Shown: piece by piece, positions 16,613-51,241 of the stretch
How positions within the stretch are numbered: position 1 is the first letter of the stretch
How the letters are laid out: each line of letters starts with the position of its first letter
Source of the DNA: a virus
Lineage: Duplodnaviria; Caudoviricetes
Length of the DNA stretch: 64,000 nt
IMG/VR virus record: IMGVR_UViG_3300038345_000144
Strand: one strand, 5' to 3'
Translations under genes and position numbers: made by a program
The notes under the pieces: model-generated
Database searches by the model: none
Told to the model about the DNA's origin: nothing
The model's input: the letters and a program-made list of their open reading frames with translations, nothing else

Positions 16613-19600
16613 TTAAGCAGTTTCTTCAGCACCGTCTTCTCTCTTCTTTTTGAAGATAAAGACCTTCATCATACCAGCCATCATTATGCAGATAATAATG
16701 ACAAATGTTGTGGTTGAAGTGTCCTTGAAGCCCGTAGGACTTGGGACAACTGAACCTGTGATATGGTATGTTTCATTACTGTTATAGTAATACTCTTCAG
16801 GGAGGTCAATACCGTTGAAGGAGATAACCTGACCCTTATTTACGATAAGAGTATTAGGGATAGCAGTATTAACTGTGCAAGGAATACCGATTGTGTAGGA
16901 AGACCTACCAGAAGTAGAACTACCCAACATACCGAACTTGACTGTTAATTTATTGCCATCGACAGTAACCGTAATGTTGTCATAACTGCTCAAAGGCTTA
17001 TCGTTAATCAAGATGTTTGCCTCATCTATTGTTACAGAAGCAGGGAGATTATCAGTAACGATTACATCAGTTAAGTCTGTATTCTCTCTGTTCTCAACCT
17101 TCAATGAGTACAAGAGCATATCGTCCTTGAATACTTCGTGCGGTGCTGTTTCTGTACCACTTTCAGGGTTAGAAGTGAGCGTTACAAGAAGTTCAGGTAA
17201 ATGAATTGTAGCATATGTTGTATTTACGGAAGGAGACTGCTCAACGAATGTTCCGTTCTTCTTCTCATCACGATAGAGAGTAGCGGTATTGTTGACCTGT
17301 GTTTCCTCGAAAATAGCATCTGCCTTCTCATAGATTACGATGTTAAATGCTCTTGCGGAGGAGCCATTACCTAAAATGAACTGCTCGCCGTTGACATCCT
17401 TACTGTAATCTACAACGATACCATAGACCTTCAATCCCGTAGGAATAGTCTTTGTCCAACCGTGCTCTGTGTCAATGTTATCAAAATCAGGTTCAGGGTC
17501 TAATGAGTACCAAACTTCACCCTTTGATGTTGTTGCAGTACCATCAGGCTTGTAACCACCGATTGTAGGAACATAAACGCTCTGGAGTGTACCAGCACCG
17601 TCTAACTTATCCTTGATAACCATATTTGTAGAGATGGTATCTTGGCTCTGACCATAGAAAATCTTGTAAGAATAGTTCTCACCTGGAACGATATTTACAG
17701 TAGAAGAATACTGGTTATTACCACGGGCAACTGAACCAAACAAACCATAAGCCTCTGCCTGTGGAGCGTAGTAATACAATGTTGTTGCCGCAGTTGATAC
17801 ATAGTAATCGTCTCTGTACTGCTCGTACAAGTCAGCATAATACTGTCTGTCCATTCTCATATTTCCATAGTAAGTATAGATGTTGTCATATACCTCGTCC
17901 ATATTAGAAGTATTGACGAAGAACATAGAGATATTACCCTCTGTTCCCAATATGAGAGCGTCTTGGTATGTACGCTGTGTTAAGAACTCTACATATACCT
18001 GTGAGTATTTAATATCGTGCATTGTGACGATAAGCATTGTTCTACCACTATTCTGCCAGTTGTTGACAAACTCGTAGTCATAGAACTCGGTAGAAATTCC
18101 ATAACCGTCCTTACTTGAGTCGTTATTGTTATTACCAATCAAGTAAACGGCTGAAGGGTTAGGTGATGCCTCTGGTAAGAGTACATAGAAAATACCTGAA
18201 CCAATCGGAGTTGTTGGAGTATTTCTGTCAGCGTGGTAGTTTCTTACGCCTGCAAATGCCCAAATACTTGAAACTCTGTTTGTAGGGTCTTCAGTTCTTT
18301 CATTGTTCTTGATACTGGAGTCAATAGACAATGCTGAAGATGGCAACTTGACAAGTTCATACAAGTCCTCAAATGCGTTAGGGTCAGTGTGTGTATGGTT
18401 CAAAACATAGTGCTGTGACTCCATACTTGCCTCGTCAAAGTTGAGGTCCAAATGACAACCAAGTTTAATTACTGTGGAAGCGTTAATATCAAAGTCAGAC
18501 TGTACCTGTGTCTTTACTCTTGCAGAAGACTTTAAGGTAACGAACGGGTCGAGCAATACTCTGATATAGAAGTGTTCAGAAGAGTCTGTAACGAACTTCC
18601 AAGCAATAGTACCTTCAGGGAGATTAACTGTTTGTGCTCTATTACCCCAGTATTCATTCTCGGTAAATAAAATCCAATCAGTATCGCCTGCCCTCTTAAC
18701 ATAGATAGAGTAAGGAATATCGCTTACATAAGTATCTTTTTGCTTTAATGTCCAAGCGACATCTTCATTTGTACTTACATCAGCATCATAAATCTCGATT
18801 GTGAATGTGAGTTTTGAGAACTCATAGTCATTCTCGCCCAAAATTATGTTACCGCAAGCAGGGTTCCACATATTGTAGTCATCGCCTGCACCAGAACTCA
18901 AGTAAACATCACCAATATCCATCCAGAGATTTACATTCTGGTTAACCCAACGGAATGTAGTATTTCCATCTGTATCAGTAAATGATGTCCACGGTGAAGT
19001 GTTCTGATACTTAACTGCCCACTCAAGTCCAGAAACGCCAGAACCATTAAGGATTGCGTTCTGTGAGTGCTTTGTAGGCTCGTAACCAACTCTACCGATT
19101 GTGAAGTTAGCCTCATCTCTCTGATAGAGTGCAAAACGATAATCTACTGCCTCTGCCTCGATGATATGTTCCTCACCATCAAAGATGACTTTAGCGGTAT
19201 TGTGTACGATAGTTCTACCACTATCACCCAACAATGATGTAGGATAACGGCAGAGAACATACATAGCACCGTAACCACTCTTACTATTTACACTATCACA
19301 ATTCTTGTAAGTGCCTTGCTGACCATATCCAACAACTTCACCCTCGCAGTCGTCAACGACATAGAGAGCCATTGAAGAGTAGTCAGATGAAGGGCAATAG
19401 AAAGATGTAGAATAAGTCCATAATACATAGAAGTAGTCATCAGAGTCTTCAGGTCTTGAACCCCAACTATTCTGCCATACAGTATAAGAAGTACCTGTAC
19501 CTCTTGTAGATGAATAGGAGTTACCGCTTCTTGGAGCAACTCTTACATTCATTTCATAAGACTTCTGTGTATCAAACTCACCATCGTTATCAGTATCAAT

Positions 19601-22600
19601 CATAAAGATAACAGGGAAAGTGACATTTGTACCATAAGAAGTGTACTGTGATGAATAGTTAATTGTAATGTTAAGACCTGCTGAACTGTTAGACAAGTTC
19701 GCATTATTTACAATAGCCCAGTTGTTAGAGTCATAATCCTTATAAGAGAAGAACATTTCACTTGATGTGTTAGGATATTGAGGTAACTCTGAAGCCAAGT
19801 CTGTGTTATTAGCATAGAAGATGGTCTTCGGAATGATAATCTGAATGTTTCCTTCAGGAATATCGTTACTGTTTTCCATTACATTGAACGCAACGTGCAA
19901 AGACGCTGTGTGTGAGTAACTACCATTTGCAAAATACAAGTGACTTGCATCAATCTTATCAGAATTGTTTGCCCAATATGCAGAACACTCAAAAGAGATA
20001 CCATTCTCATTGATTGTAGCAGTCATAGGCTCAAATACTGGATGATACTTTGTACCGAGTGCGGGTTTTGTTGCAGTTGTGAGTTGGTTGCCCTCGTCAT
20101 CAAACCAGCCTACAAGTCTCTGGTCTGCAACGGAAATACCAGGCAACGGTCCAAAAGTAACGCCTGCAACAACCTGTGTAGGTCTATAAGTTACACCGTC
20201 AATAGTAACGGCTGACTGATATACTCTACCATTTGTTGTGAAGTTGTTAGTGTAGCCTGAAACATCAAAGTAGACATAGCCACGCTCACCCCATTTAGCA
20301 ACAAGCGTTGTGTCTTTCTTAAAGTATGATGCTGAAGCAGTTGAGTATGTTATTGTTGTACCATCTTCCTTTACCTCATACCAATACAAGAATGAATAAT
20401 CATCTTTTGTAGGGATATAAGAACCAAGACCAACAGCACTATTATAAGGAACTGTTATTGCCTCGATTTCGGAACCGCCCTGTGTATCAAATGTGATTGT
20501 AACAGGTTCGTGGTTATCTTCTTCAGGGTTGTATGGGTTATACGGATTATCCTCTGGGTCAAGAGAGTCACCGTTTCGCTCCCAAACAGCGTGAAGAACA
20601 TTGTTTGTAGTGAGGTCAAGAACAGTCTCGTTGACAATTACCTGATTACCGTCCTTATCTACCCACTTAACAAGGTCATAACCCTGTCTTGTAATTGAAG
20701 GCAAGTAAGTTACCAGATAATTTTTAACATCAGGGCTGTAACCTGAACCAGGATATACACAAGAATATGTTGAAGTCTGACCGTTGATTTCACAATCATA
20801 CTCAAAAACAACTTTAGGTTCGAGCATAAGGTAAATATCAGCAGTATCACCATAAGTTACACGGTAATCATAAGCATAAACATAGTCATAATGATACTTT
20901 CCGTTACCATCATCAACATAAACGCTGTTATAACTATATCTACCAATCTGCTTTGACCAGTCAATACTGTTTGTGTTAGGGTCAATAGGGTCATCAACGG
21001 CAAACAATGTAGAATATACATATCCGAACTTGTCTTCAGGCTTGAATTCGTTATTGCTTGTAAGACCGTCAACATAGTTATTTGACCACTTGAAAGTAGA
21101 ACCGCTTAAATAAATGCTGAAATATGTTGAGAAGTTGTTGTGTGTCCAGTTATCATTACTATTTCCTCTGTTATAAGGAACTGCAAGAACTAACTCTCCG
21201 TCCTTGTACCACTGTCCATAGAACTTAACTTCAATATCTTCAGGGTTCTCATATTGAGAAGTTACATAATCAGCATAATGCACTCTCAAATAGACAGGAG
21301 GCATTATATAAGCATAAATGTCGCAACTTTCGTTGAATTTAGTGTTGTACTGATGTACTAATCCCCACGGATTGTCGTCCTCACCATTATAGGAATAACT
21401 AATTCCACTATCTTCATTGTAGAAGGTATAACCATTTTGAGAGAAGATTTCCTTACCGCTTTCAAAGTCACAATCACTACGCTTACTCCAGAACATAACG
21501 GTATCATCACCGAGTCTCTGGTTATAAGCAATACCAAAATCAATAAACTTTGCACCTGTTGTAGTTTCAATAATTACAGGGTCATACATCTGTGTACCGT
21601 CATAGGCATTGACATAATGAAGCGTAACTGTGATATTTTCAATTTTTCTCCACTGTGCGTAAAGAGTGATTGTTTCACCAGTCTGTGCTAATCCCTGAAC
21701 ACCGTCAGAAACCGCATAAGAAGTACCAGTGCCGTCAGCAGAGGTATTGTAACCTGTGAGTATGTATTCAGCATCAGAACTGAAAGCATTTGACAAAAAA
21801 TATAACTCGTCAATAGCCAATGTCTTTGTAATAGGCTCAAGTCCTTCTCTATTACCATCAATAATCAATGTGTAAGTGTCGGAAACATCCCAGTGAGCAT
21901 ACAAAGAAGTAGCAGTCATTTCAGGGTCATATTCCTCATATTTGTTGTCGCTTGAGTCATACCAACCTGTGAATGTATAGCCGTTTCTTGTAGCCGTAGG
22001 GAATGAGAAATCAGTTGTTTCAGTAGTAATATTGAGGGCATTGAAGGAAATTTCGCCACCATTACCATAGAAGTTAATTGTCTTCTGAACCTTTACCCAA
22101 GTACCAGCATATTTAGGTAAGAAACCGTTACCTAAAAGTGTGTTAAGAGGCATTGTTGTATTGTCAGAAAGTCTTACCCAGTCCATAGTATAAGATGAAC
22201 CATCAGTTGTAGTCCAAGCCTTATATCCCATACTGGTTGATAAACGGTTAGACCAACCTCTACCAACGATAACCTTATTAAGACTATTACAGCCACCCAA
22301 GAAGTAGCCCCAATATGCACCTGTATAAACCGTCCAACCAGAAAGGTCAACTGTTGTAAGGTTAGTACAGCCATTAAATACATTAGCACCGCCCCAAGAA
22401 GTATCTGTAAGACCTGTCAAATCCCAATTAAATTTAGGGAAAGTAGTCAAACTGGTACAATTTTGGAACATACCATATATAGTAGTTACCTTGTGCATAT
22501 CCATCGGTAAGTCTACTGTGGTTAATGCTCCGTCATTTAAGAACATTTCCTTTGCTGTGGTAAGATTACCAGTATTAGAAGGCATCTTAACTGACTCAAG

Positions 22601-23632
22601 ACCAGGCATATAACCAAACATACCCTCCATAGTAGTAGCACTACTAAAGTCACAGTCACTAAAATCAACCGACTTTAATTTAGGGCAGTTATTACCATAT
22701 TTATTACCAAATAACCAAGAAAAATCGGAAACTTGGCTGACATCAAACTTGTAGAAATCTACAATATTTTCCAAGTTCTTAAAGTCAGAGAAAATACCGT
22801 TATAACCCCAGAAACTATCGCCGTGACGGAGTGTAGTTGCACCAGTAATATAATCTTTGAAGATAATAGTTTTAACTAAATCAGTGTTCTGATAGTATGT
22901 ATCGCCAACTAAACGACCATTATCTCTCAAAAGTTTAATGCTGTTGTTTCCGTTAGATAATGCACCATAAGTCTCTGTGTCAGGAGTATTACCCTTCTGA
23001 ATTACAAGAGTACCGTCGGCATACAAAACAGAATATGCGTCTGTACCCAAAATTGCGGGTTCAGTACCTCTTGTAGCACCTCTTGAAGGCTCTTCTTCAG
23101 GTTCTTCTCCATCAGGATTTTCTCCATCGGGATTTTCAGCGTCAGGTGTTTGTTCATCAGGGGAACCAGCATCGGCAGGAGTTTCGCCGTCTGTTCCATC
23201 TGAATTACCACTTGTATCACCGTCAGTAGTACCATCGGTTGTTCCGTCGGTATTACCGTCCTGTCCTGCGGGAGCACCTAAAGGTCCTTGCTGACCTTCC
23301 TCACCATTATTATCAGGTGCGGGAGTGCTGTCTCCATCATCAGCAGGGTTTTCGGGTGTTTCCCCGTCTACGCTGTTTGCTCCGTTTGTGGTAGGGTTCT
23401 CTGTACCATCGTCCTGAATTGTCGCAGGGTCAGGTTTATCACCATCCGTATCGGAGTTCTCACTACCGTTGTCAGAAGAAGGAGCCTTGTCGGGAGTCTC
23501 TGTATCAACTACTGTTGTTGCAGTTGTAGGGTCTCCTGACTCTAACTCATCTGCCATTACTGTAATACTTCCGCTAAAAATATTGATAACGAAAATAGGA
23601 AGTAAAGCAAGAGTTAATAATCTTTTCTTCAT
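16613..23632 (-). CDS. large sortase-anchored surface adhesin (BspA/DUF285-like LRR, InlB B-repeats, DUF11-like domain)
   Basis: signal peptide; acidic linker; VTTIYGMFQNCTSL-type LRRs; TRNGYTFTGWY-type repeats; VIVTDNLP; C-terminal VPSPTG + TM + KKKR. Confidence 0.85.
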   Translation of the reverse strand: MKKRLLTLALLPIFVINIFSGSITVMADELESGDPTTATTVVDTETPDKAPSSDNGSENSDTDGDKPDPATIQDDGTENPTTNGANSVDGETPENPADDGDSTPAPDNNGEEGQQGPLGAPAGQDGNTDGTTDGTTDGDTSGNSDGTDGETPADAGSPDEQTPDAENPDGENPDGEEPEEEPSRGATRGTEPAILGTDAYSVLYADGTLVIQKGNTPDTETYGALSNGNNSIKLLRDNGRLVGDTYYQNTDLVKTIIFKDYITGATTLRHGDSFWGYNGIFSDFKNLENIVDFYKFDVSQVSDFSWLFGNKYGNNCPKLKSVDFSDCDFSSATTMEGMFGYMPGLESVKMPSNTGNLTTAKEMFLNDGALTTVDLPMDMHKVTTIYGMFQNCTSLTTFPKFNWDLTGLTDTSWGGANVFNGCTNLTTVDLSGWTVYTGAYWGYFLGGCNSLNKVIVGRGWSNRLSTSMGYKAWTTTDGSSYTMDWVRLSDNTTMPLNTLLGNGFLPKYAGTWVKVQKTINFYGNGGEISFNALNITTETTDFSFPTATRNGYTFTGWYDSSDNKYEEYDPEMTATSLYAHWDVSDTYTLIIDGNREGLEPITKTLAIDELYFLSNAFSSDAEYILTGYNTSADGTGTSYAVSDGVQGLAQTGETITLYAQWRKIENITVTLHYVNAYDGTQMYDPVIIETTTGAKFIDFGIAYNQRLGDDTVMFWSKRSDCDFESGKEIFSQNGYTFYNEDSGISYSYNGEDDNPWGLVHQYNTKFNESCDIYAYIMPPVYLRVHYADYVTSQYENPEDIEVKFYGQWYKDGELVLAVPYNRGNSNDNWTHNNFSTYFSIYLSGSTFKWSNNYVDGLTSNNEFKPEDKFGYVYSTLFAVDDPIDPNTNSIDWSKQIGRYSYNSVYVDDGNGKYHYDYVYAYDYRVTYGDTADIYLMLEPKVVFEYDCEINGQTSTYSCVYPGSGYSPDVKNYLVTYLPSITRQGYDLVKWVDKDGNQVIVNETVLDLTTNNVLHAVWERNGDSLDPEDNPYNPYNPEEDNHEPVTITFDTQGGSEIEAITVPYNSAVGLGSYIPTKDDYSFLYWYEVKEDGTTITYSTASASYFKKDTTLVAKWGERGYVYFDVSGYTNNFTTNGRVYQSAVTIDGVTYRPTQVVAGVTFGPLPGISVADQRLVGWFDDEGNQLTTATKPALGTKYHPVFEPMTATINENGISFECSAYWANNSDKIDASHLYFANGSYSHTASLHVAFNVMENSNDIPEGNIQIIIPKTIFYANNTDLASELPQYPNTSSEMFFSYKDYDSNNWAIVNNANLSNSSAGLNITINYSSQYTSYGTNVTFPVIFMIDTDNDGEFDTQKSYEMNVRVAPRSGNSYSSTRGTGTSYTVWQNSWGSRPEDSDDYFYVLWTYSTSFYCPSSDYSSMALYVVDDCEGEVVGYGQQGTYKNCDSVNSKSGYGAMYVLCRYPTSLLGDSGRTIVHNTAKVIFDGEEHIIEAEAVDYRFALYQRDEANFTIGRVGYEPTKHSQNAILNGSGVSGLEWAVKYQNTSPWTSFTDTDGNTTFRWVNQNVNLWMDIGDVYLSSGAGDDYNMWNPACGNIILGENDYEFSKLTFTIEIYDADVSTNEDVAWTLKQKDTYVSDIPYSIYVKRAGDTDWILFTENEYWGNRAQTVNLPEGTIAWKFVTDSSEHFYIRVLLDPFVTLKSSARVKTQVQSDFDINASTVIKLGCHLDLNFDEASMESQHYVLNHTHTDPNAFEDLYELVKLPSSALSIDSSIKNNERTEDPTNRVSSIWAFAGVRNYHADRNTPTTPIGSGIFYVLLPEASPNPSAVYLIGNNNNDSSKDGYGISTEFYDYEFVNNWQNSGRTMLIVTMHDIKYSQVYVEFLTQRTYQDALILGTEGNISMFFVNTSNMDEVYDNIYTYYGNMRMDRQYYADLYEQYRDDYYVSTAATTLYYYAPQAEAYGLFGSVARGNNQYSSTVNIVPGENYSYKIFYGQSQDTISTNMVIKDKLDGAGTLQSVYVPTIGGYKPDGTATTSKGEVWYSLDPEPDFDNIDTEHGWTKTIPTGLKVYGIVVDYSKDVNGEQFILGNGSSARAFNIVIYEKADAIFEETQVNNTATLYRDEKKNGTFVEQSPSVNTTYATIHLPELLVTLTSNPESGTETAPHEVFKDDMLLYSLKVENRENTDLTDVIVTDNLPASVTIDEANILINDKPLSSYDNITVTVDGNKLTVKFGMLGSSTSGRSSYTIGIPCTVNTAIPNTLIVNKGQVISFNGIDLPEEYYYNSNETYHITGSVVPSPTGFKDTSTTTFVIIICIMMAGMMKVFIFKKKREDGAEETA

Positions 23633-23633
23633 T

Positions 23634-24287
23634 CTAAATTTCCTCCAATTTTGTTATAAGTATAAGCCTATCTGTTCCTTCGCCTATGCAAGTGGATAAT
23701 ATCAAGTATCTTCCATCTGCAAGGTCATATTTCGCTTTTAAGAATTCTAAATTATGTTTTACATAAAGGTTATCGTAAGCACTGATTTTATCAGTAAATA
23801 GTGGTGTGATACTGTAAGTTTTGTTTTCTGTTATAAAAGTTCCTGTCTGATGAGTTGATAGATAATTTTCATCCATAAAGTCATCAAGATTTCCAAACAT
23901 TAGCCCGCCTGTCATATGGTGTCCGTAGATAACGATATAATCATCATCTAAAGTGGCATCAGCGTCTATATAGAGCGAGCCTGTTAAACTACTGTTTCCA
24001 TATAAATCTCTATTCAAGTAATTATATGTATCAGTGGCTTGTAGTACAGGGTAATCAATATTGGTGTTATCTATTGTTAGCCACCCTACTACATCAGGGT
24101 TGATTTGTTTTAGTTTTTCCAGAGAGAACTCTTCCTCGGCTACTGGCTTGACCTCTGAATAAGTCTCGGCTTTTGCTCGCTTTTGGATTGTTGCACTGTC
24201 ATACAAGAAAAACAGCATTATGGTTACAACAACCGCACAAAAGAGTTCAATGAGTGTAGTTACTACGAAATTTAACTTCTTCATCAT
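23634..24287 (-). CDS. srtB: class B sortase
   Basis: N-terminal TM; NPDVVGWL, IDYPVLQ, IYGHHM..GLMFGNL, LSTC and catalytic Arg. Confidence 0.9.
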   Translation of the reverse strand: MMKKLNFVVTTLIELFCAVVVTIMLFFLYDSATIQKRAKAETYSEVKPVAEEEFSLEKLKQINPDVVGWLTIDNTNIDYPVLQATDTYNYLNRDLYGNSSLTGSLYIDADATLDDDYIVIYGHHMTGGLMFGNLDDFMDENYLSTHQTGTFITENKTYSITPLFTDKISAYDNLYVKHNLEFLKAKYDLADGRYLILSTCIGEGTDRLILITKLEEI

Positions 24288-24790
24288 AGTCCAAAGCGTC
24301 TCACATCAAGTATTACTACACCAACTATCTGACTTTTATCAATAACTCCGAAATCTCGGCTGTCCGTATGAAACTCTCGGTTATCACACAAAACATAGTA
24401 TTGATTTTCTCCTAAAGTAACCTTGTAGTCGCTATTGGAGTTGTCAGAAGTATAAATATTATCTTCATACACCAAATAGTTATTCTGGAAAACACTACCA
24501 CTCTGACTTACATAAATCTCGTTATTTGGGGTTCCTACGAGTCGTCCGATGTATAATTCACCGTTGTATTTATAAACAACCACATCTCGTAAGGTAAAAT
24601 CCGAGTTAATTCTCGAATAAACTACGGTGTCGTGAAACTTAATGTTTGGCGACATACTATCGGAGTCCTGCGTAGTTACACCAATAACGAAAGTAAAGGT
24701 TATAATCAGCATTAGTAGAAAAACACCAAGTTTTGCTACTATCTCAACACCAGTTGAGTGCTTTTTTGTAAATTCCTTTATCTTATTCAC
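24284..24790 (-). CDS. S26 signal peptidase-like protein, probable SipA-type pilin chaperone
   Basis: SMSP box B and DNR..TDSRDFG box E; box D reads IGRLVG and lacks the catalytic Lys. Confidence 0.8.
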   Translation of the reverse strand: MNKIKEFTKKHSTGVEIVAKLGVFLLMLIITFTFVIGVTTQDSDSMSPNIKFHDTVVYSRINSDFTLRDVVVYKYNGELYIGRLVGTPNNEIYVSQSGSVFQNNYLVYEDNIYTSDNSNSDYKVTLGENQYYVLCDNREFHTDSRDFGVIDKSQIVGVVILDVRRFGL

Positions 24791-24819
24791 TTAACTTCCC
24801 TACCCATCTTAATTAGTTA

Positions 24820-26124
24820 TTATTGTTCGTCTTTCTTAACCTTAATCTTTCTAATAACGACTAAAGCACCGCCCATAAGACCAGCCAAAGCGATGAAAGG
24901 TAATACTCTCATCAAGAAACCTGTTGTAGATGGAGCGTTTGCCGTATTATAGAACTCTAATAAGAAACCCCTATTAGTAACTTCTTTAGACACATCCGTT
25001 AGAGAGTTCCTTGAAAGATAGTCTGAAACTGGCTTTCTTGTTACACCAAGTTGACCATTAGGCTGTAATACCTCATCTGTGAAAGAGTCATCAGATGTTG
25101 TTAATGTGTAAGTCAACTTTGTATTATTTGTCTCGATTACAGATAAAGATACATAAGGAGCAATACCGTAAATATAGCAACTTTTATCATCTGCCAAGCC
25201 AACAGCATAAGATTTGCTTGCTTCTGCTAACTGTCCCTCAACAGTACCAGCGAAAACGATGCCCTCGTAAGGAACCTCCTCTGCACCAGGAGCCGTATTT
25301 ACACGCTCATCTCTTAAAGTGATGGTGAACGGGAATGGGTGAGTAGTATCTGCCATATTACCGTCAATCTGCTTTGTAATAATAACATTATAAGTTTCAT
25401 AACGGTCAACAGAATTATCATCACCTACGCTGTATGTATAAACATCGTCAGCAGTTCCATCTTCGCCATCTTGACCAGCAGTATGAGTCTCGATAACATC
25501 TCCACCAATGACATAGCCTGGTGTTTTCTTGGTATCTGCAACTACGACAGGCGGGATTTCATCAAGGAGTACATAACCACTGATTTCTAACTTACCACTT
25601 GTGCTATTTCTTACTACATAAACATCAAGTTCTCTTGTAGTGTCAAAATCAGCACTTCTCATAATACCTGCTCTATACAAGTTTTCTGTTGGGGTTACAT
25701 CGGTAATTGTGTAACGATAGATACCAGGATTTTCAAACTTATCCAAATCTACCGTAAGTTCGATATTTTTAACCAACTGCTTGTTCAAAGCCGTACCCTC
25801 TGACTCTACTAATTCAGGAGTAAAAACAAGTTCAACTCCCTCGGTAAGACCACCTTCAGGACCAGCCAAAACTGGAGCCGAGATATTAGCGGAGTCTGTT
25901 ACTGCACCAAGATTTGTTGATGGTGCGATGCTGAATATATAAGTAATTTCGGGTGAATAAGACTTATCATATCCAGTATTTTGAATAATTATTCCTTTCG
26001 GAATACTGATTGTGGTGTCGGAGGTATTCGATATACCATCTTCACCGATTGTTGCCGCAAATGTAGGTACTGCCATTATCCCTACGGTGAGCAACGCAAC
26101 TAAAACCTTTGCGATTTTCTTCAT
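24820..26124 (-). CDS. putative backbone pilin (sortase B substrate)
   Basis: signal peptide; FxxPGIYRYTIT domain; C-terminal PSTTG + TM + basic tail. Confidence 0.75.
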   Translation of the reverse strand: MKKIAKVLVALLTVGIMAVPTFAATIGEDGISNTSDTTISIPKGIIIQNTGYDKSYSPEITYIFSIAPSTNLGAVTDSANISAPVLAGPEGGLTEGVELVFTPELVESEGTALNKQLVKNIELTVDLDKFENPGIYRYTITDVTPTENLYRAGIMRSADFDTTRELDVYVVRNSTSGKLEISGYVLLDEIPPVVVADTKKTPGYVIGGDVIETHTAGQDGEDGTADDVYTYSVGDDNSVDRYETYNVIITKQIDGNMADTTHPFPFTITLRDERVNTAPGAEEVPYEGIVFAGTVEGQLAEASKSYAVGLADDKSCYIYGIAPYVSLSVIETNNTKLTYTLTTSDDSFTDEVLQPNGQLGVTRKPVSDYLSRNSLTDVSKEVTNRGFLLEFYNTANAPSTTGFLMRVLPFIALAGLMGGALVVIRKIKVKKDEQ

Positions 26125-27458
26125 TTGTTCGTGTTTCCTTTCTTCTTTTTAACAACTATTATTGTTGCAGTTAAGCCAGTGATACCAACCAGTGCTATTC
26201 CTGCAAGAATAAACAAGTTAATATTGTCACCTGTTTTAGGTGAAGGCGGGAAGATAATCAAAGGGTTGTCTTTAACTGTGATAGGCACTAAAATACTACT
26301 GCCCTCATAGGAAACGCCCTCTGCATCTGGAGTTATATAGAATTTATCGGGATTGATTTCATATCCAGCAGGAGCCTTTGTTTCTTGAATATAATACTCT
26401 CTGCCGTCAATAGGAACTGTAAACTCTAAATTACCGTTGGCATCGGTAAGTCCAACACAAGGATTGCCGTTAATATCGTCTACAATGTTACCATCAGTAT
26501 CATAAAGGGTAAATTCTGCACCCTTGAGGTAATACTTAATGTTACCAGAAGAAACTTTGGCAATCTTAACATTAAAAGAAGTATAAGCAACAGGACTGCT
26601 CATCATAGTTACTGTATAAATATTATCACCGTCTTGTTTTGCCCAAGAGCCAGTATTTCCGTGTTCAGCAACTTCGTCCTTTACTACTGAATAGCCCTTA
26701 TCTAAAAGTCCTTGTAAAGTAACCTCATACATACCATAAGCGTCAGAACCACTTGTAGCGTTAACAGGGTCCATAAGGAGCATAGGCTCATTGAAACGAG
26801 CAACGCCCTTAACTACTGTTGTATTAGTCTTTTCAACTACTACGGGTTCATCAAAGGTATAAGCCAGAGGCTCAAGAACAACAGGGTCATTATCTACTAC
26901 TGTTTGTCCGAAAGGTTCGTGGCTTTCTGTAAACACAATGTCATCAGCAATTTGTGTTCCATCGTTGTCTACAAACCTAAAAATAATATTACTATTAACA
27001 ATCGCTGGTACATAAACAAATCCAGTATCTTTTACACCACTGGCGGTATAGAAGTGATAACTGGAAAGAACTAATTGACCATTATCATATAACACAGTAA
27101 CATCGAGAAGTCTGTATTCGTTCTGTGATGTATTGGTCAAGCGGTATCTGTAAGTACCTGCGTGGTCAAAAGGTGTAACATCAAAGGACATTGTGATGGG
27201 CTTTGTCTGCTTTTTACCGTCTGACAAAGAAAAGTCGAGAGTTTCAGTCTGTAATACGACACCACCCTCAACACCTTTTTCAATTCCATCAATTCCTTCG
27301 GGTTCTTCTGCTTCGAGAGTATAAGAGAAACTGCGTGAAGTTATGGAAGTTCCCTCGAAACTATTAGTTTGACTAATAGTTATACTGTCGTCTGCATATA
27401 CTACACCTCCGAAAAGCATTACACATACACATAATAAGGCTATCACGGCTTTTCGCAT
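26121..27458 (-). CDS. putative ancillary/base pilin with SpaA/CnaB domain
   Basis: signal peptide; LKGAEFTLY..TDANG..ETKAPAGY E-box; SPKTG + TM + KKKK. Confidence 0.8.
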   Translation of the reverse strand: MRKAVIALLCVCVMLFGGVVYADDSITISQTNSFEGTSITSRSFSYTLEAEEPEGIDGIEKGVEGGVVLQTETLDFSLSDGKKQTKPITMSFDVTPFDHAGTYRYRLTNTSQNEYRLLDVTVLYDNGQLVLSSYHFYTASGVKDTGFVYVPAIVNSNIIFRFVDNDGTQIADDIVFTESHEPFGQTVVDNDPVVLEPLAYTFDEPVVVEKTNTTVVKGVARFNEPMLLMDPVNATSGSDAYGMYEVTLQGLLDKGYSVVKDEVAEHGNTGSWAKQDGDNIYTVTMMSSPVAYTSFNVKIAKVSSGNIKYYLKGAEFTLYDTDGNIVDDINGNPCVGLTDANGNLEFTVPIDGREYYIQETKAPAGYEINPDKFYITPDAEGVSYEGSSILVPITVKDNPLIIFPPSPKTGDNINLFILAGIALVGITGLTATIIVVKKKKGNTNK

Positions 27459-27620
27459 TGAGTATATTCCTCCCTATACAAATTATTATTTCTCTGATAT
27501 TTCTACCAGTAATTAACAAGATAATTATATCATCTTATTTGTTCAAAAAATACAATTTTTAGTCAACTATTTAAGGCAATTTGCCCCAAATATTGCCTAA
27601 ATATCACCTTTTTTTAATAT

Positions 27621-27657
27621 AAAATGCCCCCGTATATAATTACTACACACGGGGACA
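27621..27657 (-). terminator. intrinsic terminator
   Basis: TGTCCCCGTGTGTA...TATACGGGGGCA-TTTT after the vWA gene. Confidence 0.7.
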
Positions 27658-27676
27658 ATTTATGCGTATATTTACT

Positions 27677-28348
27677 TTACTGGAGTTCTTCGTCCATCTT
27701 GGCAGATGCTTCATCAACCATAGCGTCAAACGCCATCGGAGCAAAGGAGTCTGCCTCCATTCTCTTGCCTCGTACTAAAGAAGCCGTACAGGACATAGCC
27801 TTATAAACGGAGTCTGTTCCTGCCTTGCTTGCTGTGTACTTCTTGGCTAATCGAGCATCAATACCCAAATCGCCAGAAACCTTCTCAACATCAATATTTG
27901 CACCAATAAAGGAGAATATCCAACTATACTTTTCTCTCTGGTGCTTAATCATACCCTGAACATCCTGCCAAGAGTATTCCTTACTGGCATTTTCCATACC
28001 ATCAGTAATAATAGTAACCATAACGGTTCCTGCTCGCTCTTCTTCAGGTGTTTTTGCTAAATTCGCACCAACTGAATTGATTGTCTTACCTACTGCATCG
28101 AGCATAGCCGTACAACCTAAAGGTCTATATTCCTTGTCGGTCAGGGGTTTTACATCTTTGAGAGGCACTCTGTCGTGGAGGACAATATATCTGTCATCGA
28201 ATAAAACTGTGGTAACTAATGCGTCACCCTTCTCCTTCTTTTGGTCCTCAATCAGAGTATTGTAGCCTCCGATGGTATCTTCTGTGAGCCGTCCCATTGA
28301 ACCACTCATATCGAGAATAAATACCAGTTCTGTTAAGTCTTTTCTCAT
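27677..28348 (-). CDS. von Willebrand factor A (vWA) domain protein
   Basis: MIDAS DMSGSM, TAMLDA, IITDGMENAS. Confidence 0.9.
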   Translation of the reverse strand: MRKDLTELVFILDMSGSMGRLTEDTIGGYNTLIEDQKKEKGDALVTTVLFDDRYIVLHDRVPLKDVKPLTDKEYRPLGCTAMLDAVGKTINSVGANLAKTPEEERAGTVMVTIITDGMENASKEYSWQDVQGMIKHQREKYSWIFSFIGANIDVEKVSGDLGIDARLAKKYTASKAGTDSVYKAMSCTASLVRGKRMEADSFAPMAFDAMVDEASAKMDEELQ

Positions 28349-33700: not shown

Positions 33701-33756
33701 ACTAATTCCTCCTAAAAATAATGTAGTTTCTTATTATTAGCATAGAAACTGAATAG

Positions 33757-34133
33757 TGTCAACCTCCATAACTGGAGAACAGAACTGGAAACATCCAATT
33801 TTCCACAAACATTTTCTCCAAGAAAAACCCCCATTCACACGGGGAAGATACGGTAGATTTCATACTGGAAGGTGTAAACAATGAATAACCTCCGCAGATA
33901 CGGAGAATTCTTGAATATCCCGCAAAATAATGGTACTCGATTGATAAACCCCCAACAAGTGAGGAAGGTGTCCAGCGGTTTTAGAGTCGGTTGCTCTACC
34001 TGAAAAACCCCAGCAATAAGGGAAAGTGTGATGTCAGCATCTTGACCGAACAACCCCCAAAAAATGAGGAAAGCAGTCTAACCGTGTCCGAGCCTGGTGT
34101 ACTACCTGATAAACCTCCGAGAAATCGGAGAAG
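33757..34133 (-). CRISPR. degenerate type I-E-like repeat/spacer array 1 (7 repeats, no cas genes)
   Basis: + strand units GAnnAACCYCC-N-GRGGAA/GGAGAA starting near 33757, 33822, 33883, 33943, 34002, 34048, 34108; mostly ~60-bp period; reverse complement resembles GTTTTCCCCGC..GCGGGGGTGATCC. Confidence 0.75.
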
Positions 34134-34145
34134 TTAATTGATTTT

Positions 34146-34484
34146 TTAATCGTCTACGAGCATTTCCCAAGCCCTGTCGTCTTCTACTACCTTCTGGACC
34201 AAAATAAATGCTTTGAGAGCGTCAAACCAAGTAGAATTAACAAAGTTCTCGGCTTTACCCATAACCCAAACACCTTGATAGGTTAAATTGCAGGTAAAAT
34301 CATAGCCGTCAACTACTAACGGAACTTCATCAGTGTCCCAACCGTTTGCTTCTGCTGTCTTGTAGTCAAAGTGCTCGTCTTCTTTGACATACTGGGCAAA
34401 TGTCTTATAGGTCATCAATAACTCATAGTTATAACCAGAGTCATCACAAACCTCAATAATATCGTTATAAGGAATATAAGCCAT
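34146..34484 (-). CDS. hypothetical protein immediately upstream of array 1
   Basis: 112 aa; stop codon 12 bp before the first repeat. Confidence 0.75.
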   Translation of the reverse strand: MAYIPYNDIIEVCDDSGYNYELLMTYKTFAQYVKEDEHFDYKTAEANGWDTDEVPLVVDGYDFTCNLTYQGVWVMGKAENFVNSTWFDALKAFILVQKVVEDDRAWEMLVDD

Positions 34485-41616: not shown

Positions 41617-41660
41617 ATTAAAACCCTGAATATTGGCAGTATTCGAGATTTACTGCTAAA

Positions 41661-41895
41661 AATCAGCCTCCGATAACGGAGAAAAACAATGTTAACTTCA
41701 CACTGCCAACCTGACTTTGAGAAACCTCCACGAACGGAGAAGTAATCCTGCGTGAGCATCCTACACACGGGGAAAAGTCTGATTGCGAAGTGTTCTTTGC
41801 ATCGGAAAGAATAACCCCCGTAAAACAGGGATAAAAAAATAATAAAGGGGATAGTTCAAAATTTGCCTCGAAAAACCTCCGAAAATTCGGAGAAG
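41661..41895 (-). CRISPR. degenerate type I-E-like repeat/spacer array 2 (4-5 repeats)
   Basis: units near 41661, 41719, 41754 (very degenerate), 41809, 41870; 41870..41916 is 44/47 identical to 34108..34154. Confidence 0.65.
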
Positions 41896-41914
41896 TTAAT
41901 TGATTTTTTAATCG

Positions 41915-42181
41915 TCATTCGTTAAGTTGGGCGATATAATCCATTATTTGCTTCACGGCAGAGTTGTCTACTGCCTGAATATTCCAGCCATCTTCTACAC
42001 ACTGAATTGCAGAAGTGTCCTGACCCTTCATATATGTAGTGTGGTTAGCAATAAATTCCCTGATTGTCTCATTGTCAATTTCACTTGCCTCACACTCATA
42101 CTCACGCTTAATCTCTTCGACCAATCTCTCAATATCAATCTCGATTGACGCACTTACTTCAATGGTTGTCCAATTACTCAT
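41915..42181 (-). CDS. hypothetical protein upstream of array 2
   Basis: 88 aa with RBS. Confidence 0.7.
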   Translation of the reverse strand: MSNWTTIEVSASIEIDIERLVEEIKREYECEASEIDNETIREFIANHTTYMKGQDTSAIQCVEDGWNIQAVDNSAVKQIMDYIAQLNE

Positions 42182-50075: not shown

Positions 50076-50113
50076 TCTTTTTCACCTCATTTAACCCAGT
50101 TTCCTTCGCCTAT

Positions 50114-50141
50114 ATTACATTTATGTTACATTTAGATTACA
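50114..50141 (-). promoter_or_regulatory. three TGTAAY boxes at 11-bp period
   Basis: minus strand TGTAAT-CTAAA-TGTAAC-ATAAA-TGTAAT. Confidence 0.7.
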
Positions 50142-50408
50142 TTACTCTAACTCAACATCGAGTATGCCGTCTGATGTAACATAGAAATTCTTGATATTTC
50201 GCATAGTAAGGGTGTTTTCAGCGTTCTGAATGGTTAATGCTGGACCTGTCAGGTAGGTTTTACCGTTATTATGGTCAATCTGAAACTTCAGCAGTTTATC
50301 ACCATTCAATAAACCCTCTGTTGCATTATTCTTCGACCAAATACGCACTTGACTGTTATTTTGGTCGCCATCTGGTCTGTAATGTAAAATCAATTCGCCT
50401 AACTGCAT
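50142..50408 (-). CDS. hypothetical protein downstream of array 3
   Basis: start MQLGE after AAAGGA; the longer track start lies inside a repeat. Confidence 0.7.
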   Translation of the reverse strand: MQLGELILHYRPDGDQNNSQVRIWSKNNATEGLLNGDKLLKFQIDHNNGKTYLTGPALTIQNAENTLTMRNIKNFYVTSDGILDVELE

Positions 50409-50434
50409 ATGTGTATTTCCTTTCTTATATATAA

Positions 50435-50935
50435 ATAGTGCCTCCATATCTGGAGAAATTTAGTTTTAACATAAGTCTTTATGTGTTCCCAAGAAAAACC
50501 TCCGAACAGAGAAATAGCGTACTATTAAGGGTGATGTTGTTTAGTCCACCGATAAACCCCCGTGTTCGGGGAAAAGACTCAAGGTATTTTTGCGTTGATT
50601 AGTCCAACCGAATAACCCCCCATATATACGAGGAAACCTAAACCATTCTGACTATATCAGGAGTACCGTCAGATAAACCCCCGTGTGTACGGAGAAACGG
50701 AAAAATTGGCTCTTTTTTGCATCATTTGTCCGAACAACCCCCGTGTGCGAGGAAACCGAGATTATCCATATATAAGTAGCAATACCCGTGGAATAACCCC
50801 CAATATTGGGGAAAACTCAAACGAAGATGTTATGGAAGTTATTTATGAGGAATAACCCCCGTGTTCGGGGAAAATAACCTCCACCAGTTTGTTTTATGCC
50901 AAAATAAGAATAACCATCAATGATACGGGTCATAA
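50435..50935 (-). CRISPR. type I-E-like repeat/spacer array 3 (9 repeats, 32-35 nt spacers)
   Basis: units near 50435, 50493, 50551, 50610, 50672, 50732, 50791, 50850, 50908; best copy on minus strand TTTTCCCCGAACACGGGGGTTATTC; 58-62 bp period. Confidence 0.85.
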
Positions 50936-51201
50936 ACAATCCTACCACCCGTAATACGAGCATTTGTTATAGATATACGATGTTGAGAAAATCCTCTTGT
51001 AAGCACATCTGCATCTACATAAAACTTTTTACCATCGGCTCCCTCAATCTCGTATGAAGAAATCTCCTTTTGAGGATATTTCCACGGCTGGATAGAGTGT
51101 TCTATCATAGCCTTACCCGTCCACTTACCCTCTTTTTCGAGTTGACCGATAATTCTATAATCCTGTTGAGGTATGTTTTGAACATTGTAATAAACTACCA
51201 T
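50917..51201 (-). CDS. 94-aa protein embedded between two CRISPR-like repeats
   Basis: GGGAGGAG RBS directly after repeat 51214..51239; stop codon inside the repeat at 50908. Confidence 0.75.
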   Translation of the reverse strand: MVVYYNVQNIPQQDYRIIGQLEKEGKWTGKAMIEHSIQPWKYPQKEISSYEIEGADGKKFYVDADVLTRGFSQHRISITNARITGGRIVYDPYH

Positions 51202-51213
51202 TCAGCTCCTCCC

Positions 51214-51239
51214 GAATAACCCCCAAATATTGGGGATAA
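51214..51239 (-). repeat. solitary type I-E-like repeat (first unit of array 3)
   Basis: GAATAACCCCCAAATATTGGGGATAA, nearly identical to the copy at 50791. Confidence 0.8.
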
Positions 51240-51241
51240 TT

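Follow-up and report, generated by a model that had tools for sequence, protein, structure and literature searches.

Among the closest described systems are the solitary repeat units, or Racr; in the example reported by Camara-Wilpert et al. 2023 (PMC10651486), an AcrIC5 homolog is followed 11 nt later by RacrIC1, and both are transcribed together. Viral Cracr arrays were described by Liu et al. (bioRxiv 10.1101/2024.10.29.618823) as sets of non-identical repeat-like units, including units of type I-E, which undergo Cas-dependent processing and are sometimes found with anti-CRISPR proteins; in that study, a repeat variant with an altered loop was processed poorly. The locus analysed here lies in a 64,000-nt stretch of viral DNA (Duplodnaviria; Caudoviricetes) from the IMG/VR record IMGVR_UViG_3300038345_000144, which is referred to as the window. 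In it, a 94-aa open reading frame (ORF94) stands between a single repeat unit upstream (R0) and the remnant of a repeat (R1) at the head of a hairpin array (array 3) downstream. As in Racr and acr-racr loci (PMC10651486), a mobile element carries a single CRISPR-type unit that is not part of an array and directly adjoins a small gene, here presumably also in one transcription unit with it. Unlike Racr (PMC10651486), R0 is placed upstream of the ribosome-binding site of ORF94, is apparently a fresh copy of the first repeat of the adjacent array, is confined to one strain, and accompanies a protein without Acr similarity in the family libraries searched. By these traits, and by the orphan family to which its protein belongs, the locus differs from the known systems. 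The arrays of the window resemble Cracr (bioRxiv 10.1101/2024.10.29.618823) in being carried by a mobile element and in consisting of non-identical repeat-like units, and the altered-loop variant of that study has a parallel in the hairpin-less R1 remnant. However, Cracr have 2-3 shortened spacers (21-24 nt) that partly match host cas promoters, whereas the arrays here have 5-9 units, spacers of 32-35 nt for which no target was found, and a position embedded in protein-coding operons. With the virus-borne mini-arrays and the adaptation-less CRISPR-Cas systems of jumbo phages, as presented in the available text of PMC6858448 and PMC11656645, the locus shares a very large mobile element, the lack of nearby cas1/cas2, and a content that varies between related genomes. 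The mini-arrays in that text have repeats identical to those of the host, whereas almost every repeat differs here, and no gene placed between repeats is described in it.

All genes of the window are on the minus strand, and the GC content is about 0.38. Known families are nearly absent, with the exception of a sortase, SpaA/FctA-like pilins, and a 2339-aa repeat adhesin, and these families point to a Gram-positive host. They are found in a pilus-like cluster at 16613-28348, with the sortase at 23634-24287, the SpaA/FctA-like pilins at 24820-27458, and Listeria-Bacteroides repeats in the adhesin; such a cluster is unusual cargo for a phage-like element. No DNA similar to the window was found among GenBank phages. 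The relatives of ORF94 are on gut-metagenome contigs with sizes up to 162-355 kb, some of which carry tRNA genes, and the window is therefore taken to come from a very large phage-like or plasmid-like element. Two more arrays with the unit type of array 3 are present at ~33750-34135 (array 1) and ~41660-41896 (array 2). A start module of ~44 nt that includes the first repeat (34111-34154 and 41873-41916) is 95% identical between these two arrays, and in each it is joined to an unrelated gene immediately behind the stop codon.

The features of the locus are listed in Table 1. R0 consists of a 6-bp G/C-rich stem and a 3-nt loop followed by GTTATTCG, and the handle, the Shine-Dalgarno sequence, and the ATG of ORF94 all fall within 20 nt. 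It is a lone intact unit, with the next intact repeat (R2) 336 nt away. The original prediction for this DNA had placed a repeat directly before the ribosome-binding site, ctga, and ATG of a 94-aa ORF on the minus strand, and this order is present, with the unit at 51240-51213 and not at 51239-51214 as first given; the stop of the upstream gene, also said to lie just before the repeat, is one or two nt from R0. A degenerate repeat holding the ORF94 stop codon had been proposed at 50908. The repeat itself was confirmed as real and not a chance match, as alignment with nine other haplotypes identified it as the 3' handle of the ancestral first repeat, and its 58-bp register with the array was reproduced, measured from the end of the remnant at 50908 to the end of the next handle at 50850. 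The TGA is not inside it, and the remnant starts only after the stop codon; where relatives have the unit intact, the last base of the TGA is also the first base of the repeat. The hairpin-plus-handle motif gave 12 matches against 0.43 expected, and exact GGTTATTC has only 11 occurrences on both strands of the window, 7 of which are inside arrays. Since no hairpin was kept in the R1 remnant, processing there is unlikely as judged from the sequence. No sigma-70-like promoter was found on the coding strand between the upstream gene and ORF94. At the distal end of array 3, the terminal unit is followed by an AT-rich stretch and the ribosome-binding site of the next gene. The first spacer-like segment (50875-50907) has a 3' end that resembles the 3' half of the repeat and directly abuts the next full repeat; no match to this segment was found in the other haplotypes, the window, or the phage and plasmid collections. 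Its composition suggests further scrambling at the proximal end of the array.

Table 1. Features of the ORF94 locus, in minus-strand order, with positions given in the window.
Feature	Position	Strand	Basis and remarks
Upstream gene, 75 aa	51242..51469	-	ORF list; function unassigned; TAA at 51244-51242; 12 nt upstream of ORF94 in all close relatives
R0, 28-nt hairpin repeat unit, strain-specific	51213..51240	-	Alignment; between the upstream stop and the native ribosome-binding site of ORF94
Native Shine-Dalgarno sequence GGAGGAG (51212-51206) and 4-nt spacer CTGA	51202..51212	-	Sequence; kept, with one base changed, in relatives without R0
ORF94, 94-aa conserved gene of an orphan family	50917..51201	-	Translation, homologs, dN/dS; ATG at 51201, TGA at 50919-50917
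R1 remnant, 8-nt 3' handle GGTTATTC	50908..50915	-	Alignment; ancestral first repeat minus the 17-nt hairpin; starts 1 nt behind the TGA
First spacer-like segment, 33 nt	50875..50907	-	Sequence comparison; unique to the window haplotype
Rest of array 3, eight hairpin units, period 58-61 nt	50433..50874	-	Sequence and hairpin scan; last two units degenerate
Downstream gene, 101 aa	50142..50447	-	ORF list; directly after ORF94 in the array-less 83% relative

For the haplotype comparison, contigs encoding exact ORF94 or a 98% variant were used, and the region was extracted from each, which resulted in ten distinct haplotypes. R0 is found upstream of ORF94 in one of the ten, the window's own, which is also carried by contig L019. 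Over 3285 nt, L019 and the window are 100% identical, compared with ~87-99% in the flanks for the other haplotypes; the two may come from the same sample, so that the arrangement would rest on a single strain. The other nine haplotypes (L018, L020-L025, L008/L009, and L010) have a gap of 12 nt between the upstream gene and ORF94 with no repeat in it, and all have an intact first repeat whose first base is the last one of the ORF94 stop codon. Two further contigs, which were listed without DNA, also have the 12-nt gap. When aligned against L009, L010, and L011, the window shows two changes: 28 nt have been cleanly inserted between the region of the upstream stop and the native Shine-Dalgarno sequence, and a 17-nt deletion has removed the hairpin of the first repeat and left the handle. 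Between R0 and the first repeat of L008/L009, 24 of 24 positions agree. An assembly artefact was considered and judged unlikely, as the 28-nt insertion and the 17-nt deletion are precise and both are reproduced in L019. A scan of the JGI data for the ancestral or the derived upstream junction gave no match.

The arrays of haplotypes with an identical or 98%-identical ORF94 contain 5 to 9 units and are mosaics. The distal 136-149 nt of the window array are 91-95% identical to L008, L009, and L010, whereas the proximal spacers differ. Spacers common to several haplotypes stand in different orders, the loops beside the same spacer differ, and L023 corresponds to L018 with one unit added at the end proximal to ORF94. 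Two distal degenerate units and the last spacer are kept in most haplotypes (L020 and L021 are without the penultimate degenerate unit). This shuffling of units between haplotypes indicates that rearrangement at the level of single units is frequent in the population. In L022 (1565-1830), the 28-nt core of a last spacer that is universal elsewhere (window 50517-50550) is present within the last spacer in reverse-complement orientation and with different flanks, which looks as if one target had been sampled twice in opposite directions.

Homologs of ORF94 were found at 98, 83, 75, and 66% identity, with 45 invariant columns. Homologs without flanking repeats, which the original prediction had named, jointly with an expression unaffected by Cas6, as evidence against its own reading, do exist. 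Throughout the relatives, ORF94 has kept its neighbours and its native ribosome-binding site. In the 83% relative (L011/L012), the order of the three genes is unchanged, with a 30-nt gap after ORF94 and no array, and no array is present in the 75% relative (L007). The 66% relatives (L001-L006 and L013) have one hairpin with an AT-rich stretch behind it, also with no array. The most distant homologs have no array either, and are tightly packed with other genes or placed behind a sigma-70-like promoter (L014 and L016). The dN/dS of ORF94 is ~0.1 in comparisons with close relatives, where dS is 0.07-0.09, and likewise with the 83% relative, where dS is ~1.1. By these substitution ratios, ORF94 is a real gene under purifying selection. 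It belongs to an orphan family, which has only 6 clusters in an exhaustive profile search of 1.84 billion representative proteins, and it is found only in huge gut-metagenome elements.

Taken together with the haplotype alignments, this distribution makes it very probable that ORF94 is an ordinary resident gene around which, in one strain, a copy of the first repeat was gained upstream while the original repeat lost its hairpin. The ORF94 gene would have come first, perhaps with one ancestral hairpin behind it. A type I-E-like hairpin array would then have grown downstream of ORF94, before the next gene, in one sub-lineage. Last, in the strain of the window, a 28-nt copy of the first repeat would have been placed between the upstream stop and the ribosome-binding site of ORF94, and the original first repeat would have lost its 17-nt hairpin and kept the 8-nt handle. 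A simple swap of positions fails as an explanation because R0 has both hairpin and handle and yet a handle is also left downstream; at least two events would be needed, for example, a duplication or template switch and a hairpin-stimulated deletion. By this account the repeats moved and the gene stayed, and the bracketing of ORF94 would be an appearance only. The arrangement is most likely a neutral by-product of the shuffling of repeat units, since the state is young and confined to one strain, although this confinement may also be compatible with an adaptive role.

If the units are processed, the rearrangement could still affect the RNA. The array is presumably transcribed with the operon by read-through, because no promoter-like site lies between the genes. 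As far as the anatomy of the repeats allows, a putative Cas6e-type nuclease would cut each hairpin at its base. With the R0 hairpin cut at its 3' base, the 8-nt handle would remain directly in front of the Shine-Dalgarno sequence, and cuts at R0 and R2 would release one RNA of ~350-370 nt, with the 8-nt handle, the Shine-Dalgarno sequence, ORF94, the handle remnant, the first spacer, and the R2 hairpin in this order. Such an RNA would be built like a giant crRNA in which ORF94 happens to be encoded. The ORF94 mRNA might be protected by its 5'-OH end and a bound 3' hairpin, or ORF94 might be repressed by Cas5/Cas7 loading over the ribosome-binding site. Work of Qi et al. from 2012 in Nat Biotechnol reportedly used engineered Cas6/Csy4 cleavage sites as insulators between cistrons. 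Like these, a Cas6-family hairpin just before a ribosome-binding site would part the cistron from the upstream RNA and define its 5' end; unlike the synthetic insulators, the effect of R0 is hypothetical, and R0 is probably an accident of rearrangement. It is doubtful, if conceivable, that R0 was recruited as a natural intercistronic site, where a putative Cas6e of the element would cut the operon RNA, the ORF94 mRNA would receive crRNA-like ends, and its stability or translation would depend on Cas6e or Cascade. Recruitment of this kind would be a natural counterpart of the synthetic Csy4 insulators and possibly part of a wider theme of hairpin-before-ribosome-binding-site control in the element.

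The protein was searched for indications of a function connected with CRISPR. ORF94 had no match in the Pfam, PHROG, NCBIfam, and PADLOC family libraries, and tblastn gave no match in GenBank phages or PLSDB plasmids. No relative was found in IMG/VR, searched both by protein and by alignment, and the ESM Atlas gave no usable lead (best score 0.75). The AlphaFold2 model was mediocre, with a pLDDT of 67.5. With this model, Foldseek searches of PDB and BFVD returned only E values above 0.1 and no convincing match, and VIA-align against PDB representatives returned a best Z of 5.3 over 52 residues, with none of the matches convincing. The original prediction had read the locus as a candidate CRISPR-sensing anti-CRISPR or toxin cassette, in which Cas6-type cleavage would free a monocistronic ORF94 RNA and the protein could depend on a type I-E system active in the host. 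Extended to a cassette under selection, this reading would have R0 serve such cleavage or let Cas5/Cas7 on the handle occlude the ribosome-binding site, with ORF94 as an anti-CRISPR, toxin, or sensor tied to type I-E. If true, this would be a novel means by which a mobile element links a gene to CRISPR activity. The geometry fits, with handle, Shine-Dalgarno sequence, and ATG in close succession; with the R1 hairpin gone, a direct repeat through which recombination could delete ORF94 is no longer there; and acr-racr bicistronic operons are known in which the repeat lies 11 nt after the acr gene (PMC10651486). However, the bracketed arrangement occurs in one strain among the ten haplotypes and in no relative, and nothing suggests that it is under selection. 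Furthermore, ORF94 is kept with the same neighbours in repeat-less lineages, and no Acr, toxin, or defence family or fold was matched in the libraries and structure sets searched. A selected cassette is therefore unlikely.

A different reading of the locus denies the hairpin units any role as CRISPR-type processing sites and takes them for weak terminators, attenuators, or sites for other RNA-binding proteins, with R0 as one more intergenic hairpin. The units were found by an explicit hairpin scan, as the MAFFT alignment of the units was out of structural register. The geometry is that of type I-E, with a 28-nt unit (R0), stems of 5-6 bp, a GTT..TC handle, unique spacers of 32-35 nt, and a period of 58-62 nt. 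The repeats are not near-identical, with 51 distinct sequences and 33 distinct loops among 55 units, and this diversity favours hairpins of another kind. No leader was found; the ORF94 stop codon marks the start of the first repeat in all haplotypes, stop codons also immediately precede arrays 1 and 2, and no promoter-like site was found there. For the spacers tested, no targets were found in GenBank phages, PLSDB plasmids, the window or the extracted loci, IMG/VR, or JGI metagenomes, although the targets may just be unsampled. The three spacers common to the window and L025 differ at 6-11% of positions, which is approximately the synonymous divergence of the flanking gene, and drift at this rate also speaks for this reading. 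Several units score as terminator-like. Rfam gave no match to the repeats at the gathering threshold, and up to E of 10 there were only chance rows and no CRISPR repeat family.

Against this reading, the 8-nt 3' handle is nearly fixed across the 55 units, and compensatory changes, with CG or TA at pair 2 and GC or AT at pair 5, preserve the stem, although the stem-pairing counts for the 55 units are descriptive because the selection of units itself required pairing. G-U pairs in the stem form only in the RNA of the coding strand. A scan of the genome collection for paired handles returned mostly chance hits or unrelated arrays and one related mini-array, on a 3.1-kb contig of an uncultured Prevotella MAG (L029, 2540-2800). 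This is a canonical mini-array, with four near-identical 28-nt repeats of the same type, the same handle, and 33-nt spacers; no match to a Cas6e family was found in the incomplete MAG of this contig. With the period, the spacer length, the handle, and the canonical mini-array all on the CRISPR side, hairpins unrelated to CRISPR are distinctly improbable.

Capture of ORF94 by the array, as a giant spacer (the alternative offered by the original prediction) or as inserted cargo, for which the position of the gene between two repeat-derived elements in array register would speak, is hardly credible, as ORF94, its native ribosome-binding site, and both flanking genes are collinear in array-less relatives (L011), the inserted segment is a 28-nt repeat and not a gene, and the flanking units are not a duplicated intact repeat pair, the downstream one being a hairpin-less remnant. 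The gene in a spacer position is real as anatomy and, on the comparative alignments, is best described as a recent repeat rearrangement around a resident gene, neither a capture nor a demonstrably functional cassette.

Understood as such a rearrangement, the strain comparison gives a snapshot of repeat-unit mobility, with a precise 28-nt copy at a new intergenic site and the old copy disabled. Small as it is, the case can be dated, and it illustrates how solitary repeat units or new array sites may arise without cas1/cas2. The haplotypes with and without a repeat before the ribosome-binding site form a natural pair that could be used to test the effect of Cas6e processing on an adjacent gene. 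The more remarkable object is the array system, which is embedded in operons, has nearly every repeat different and yet hairpin and handle kept, and has its units shuffled between strains with an identical flanking gene.

Minor observations were made around the locus. A terminal hairpin and the AT-rich sequence TATTTATATATAA are present at 50420-50460 of the window and are kept in L001-L006 (3297-3335) and L013 (440-478); the array may have grown out of this hairpin as its ancestor, or they may be a terminator or promoter element. In the 75% relative, a tRNA-like gene cluster was read from the sequence ~1.4 kb downstream of the ORF94 homolog (L007, 4680-5340). Shortly past the 101-aa gene located downstream of array 3, the 11-nt motif TATATTACATT (plus strand) is repeated three times in tandem at 50111-50143.
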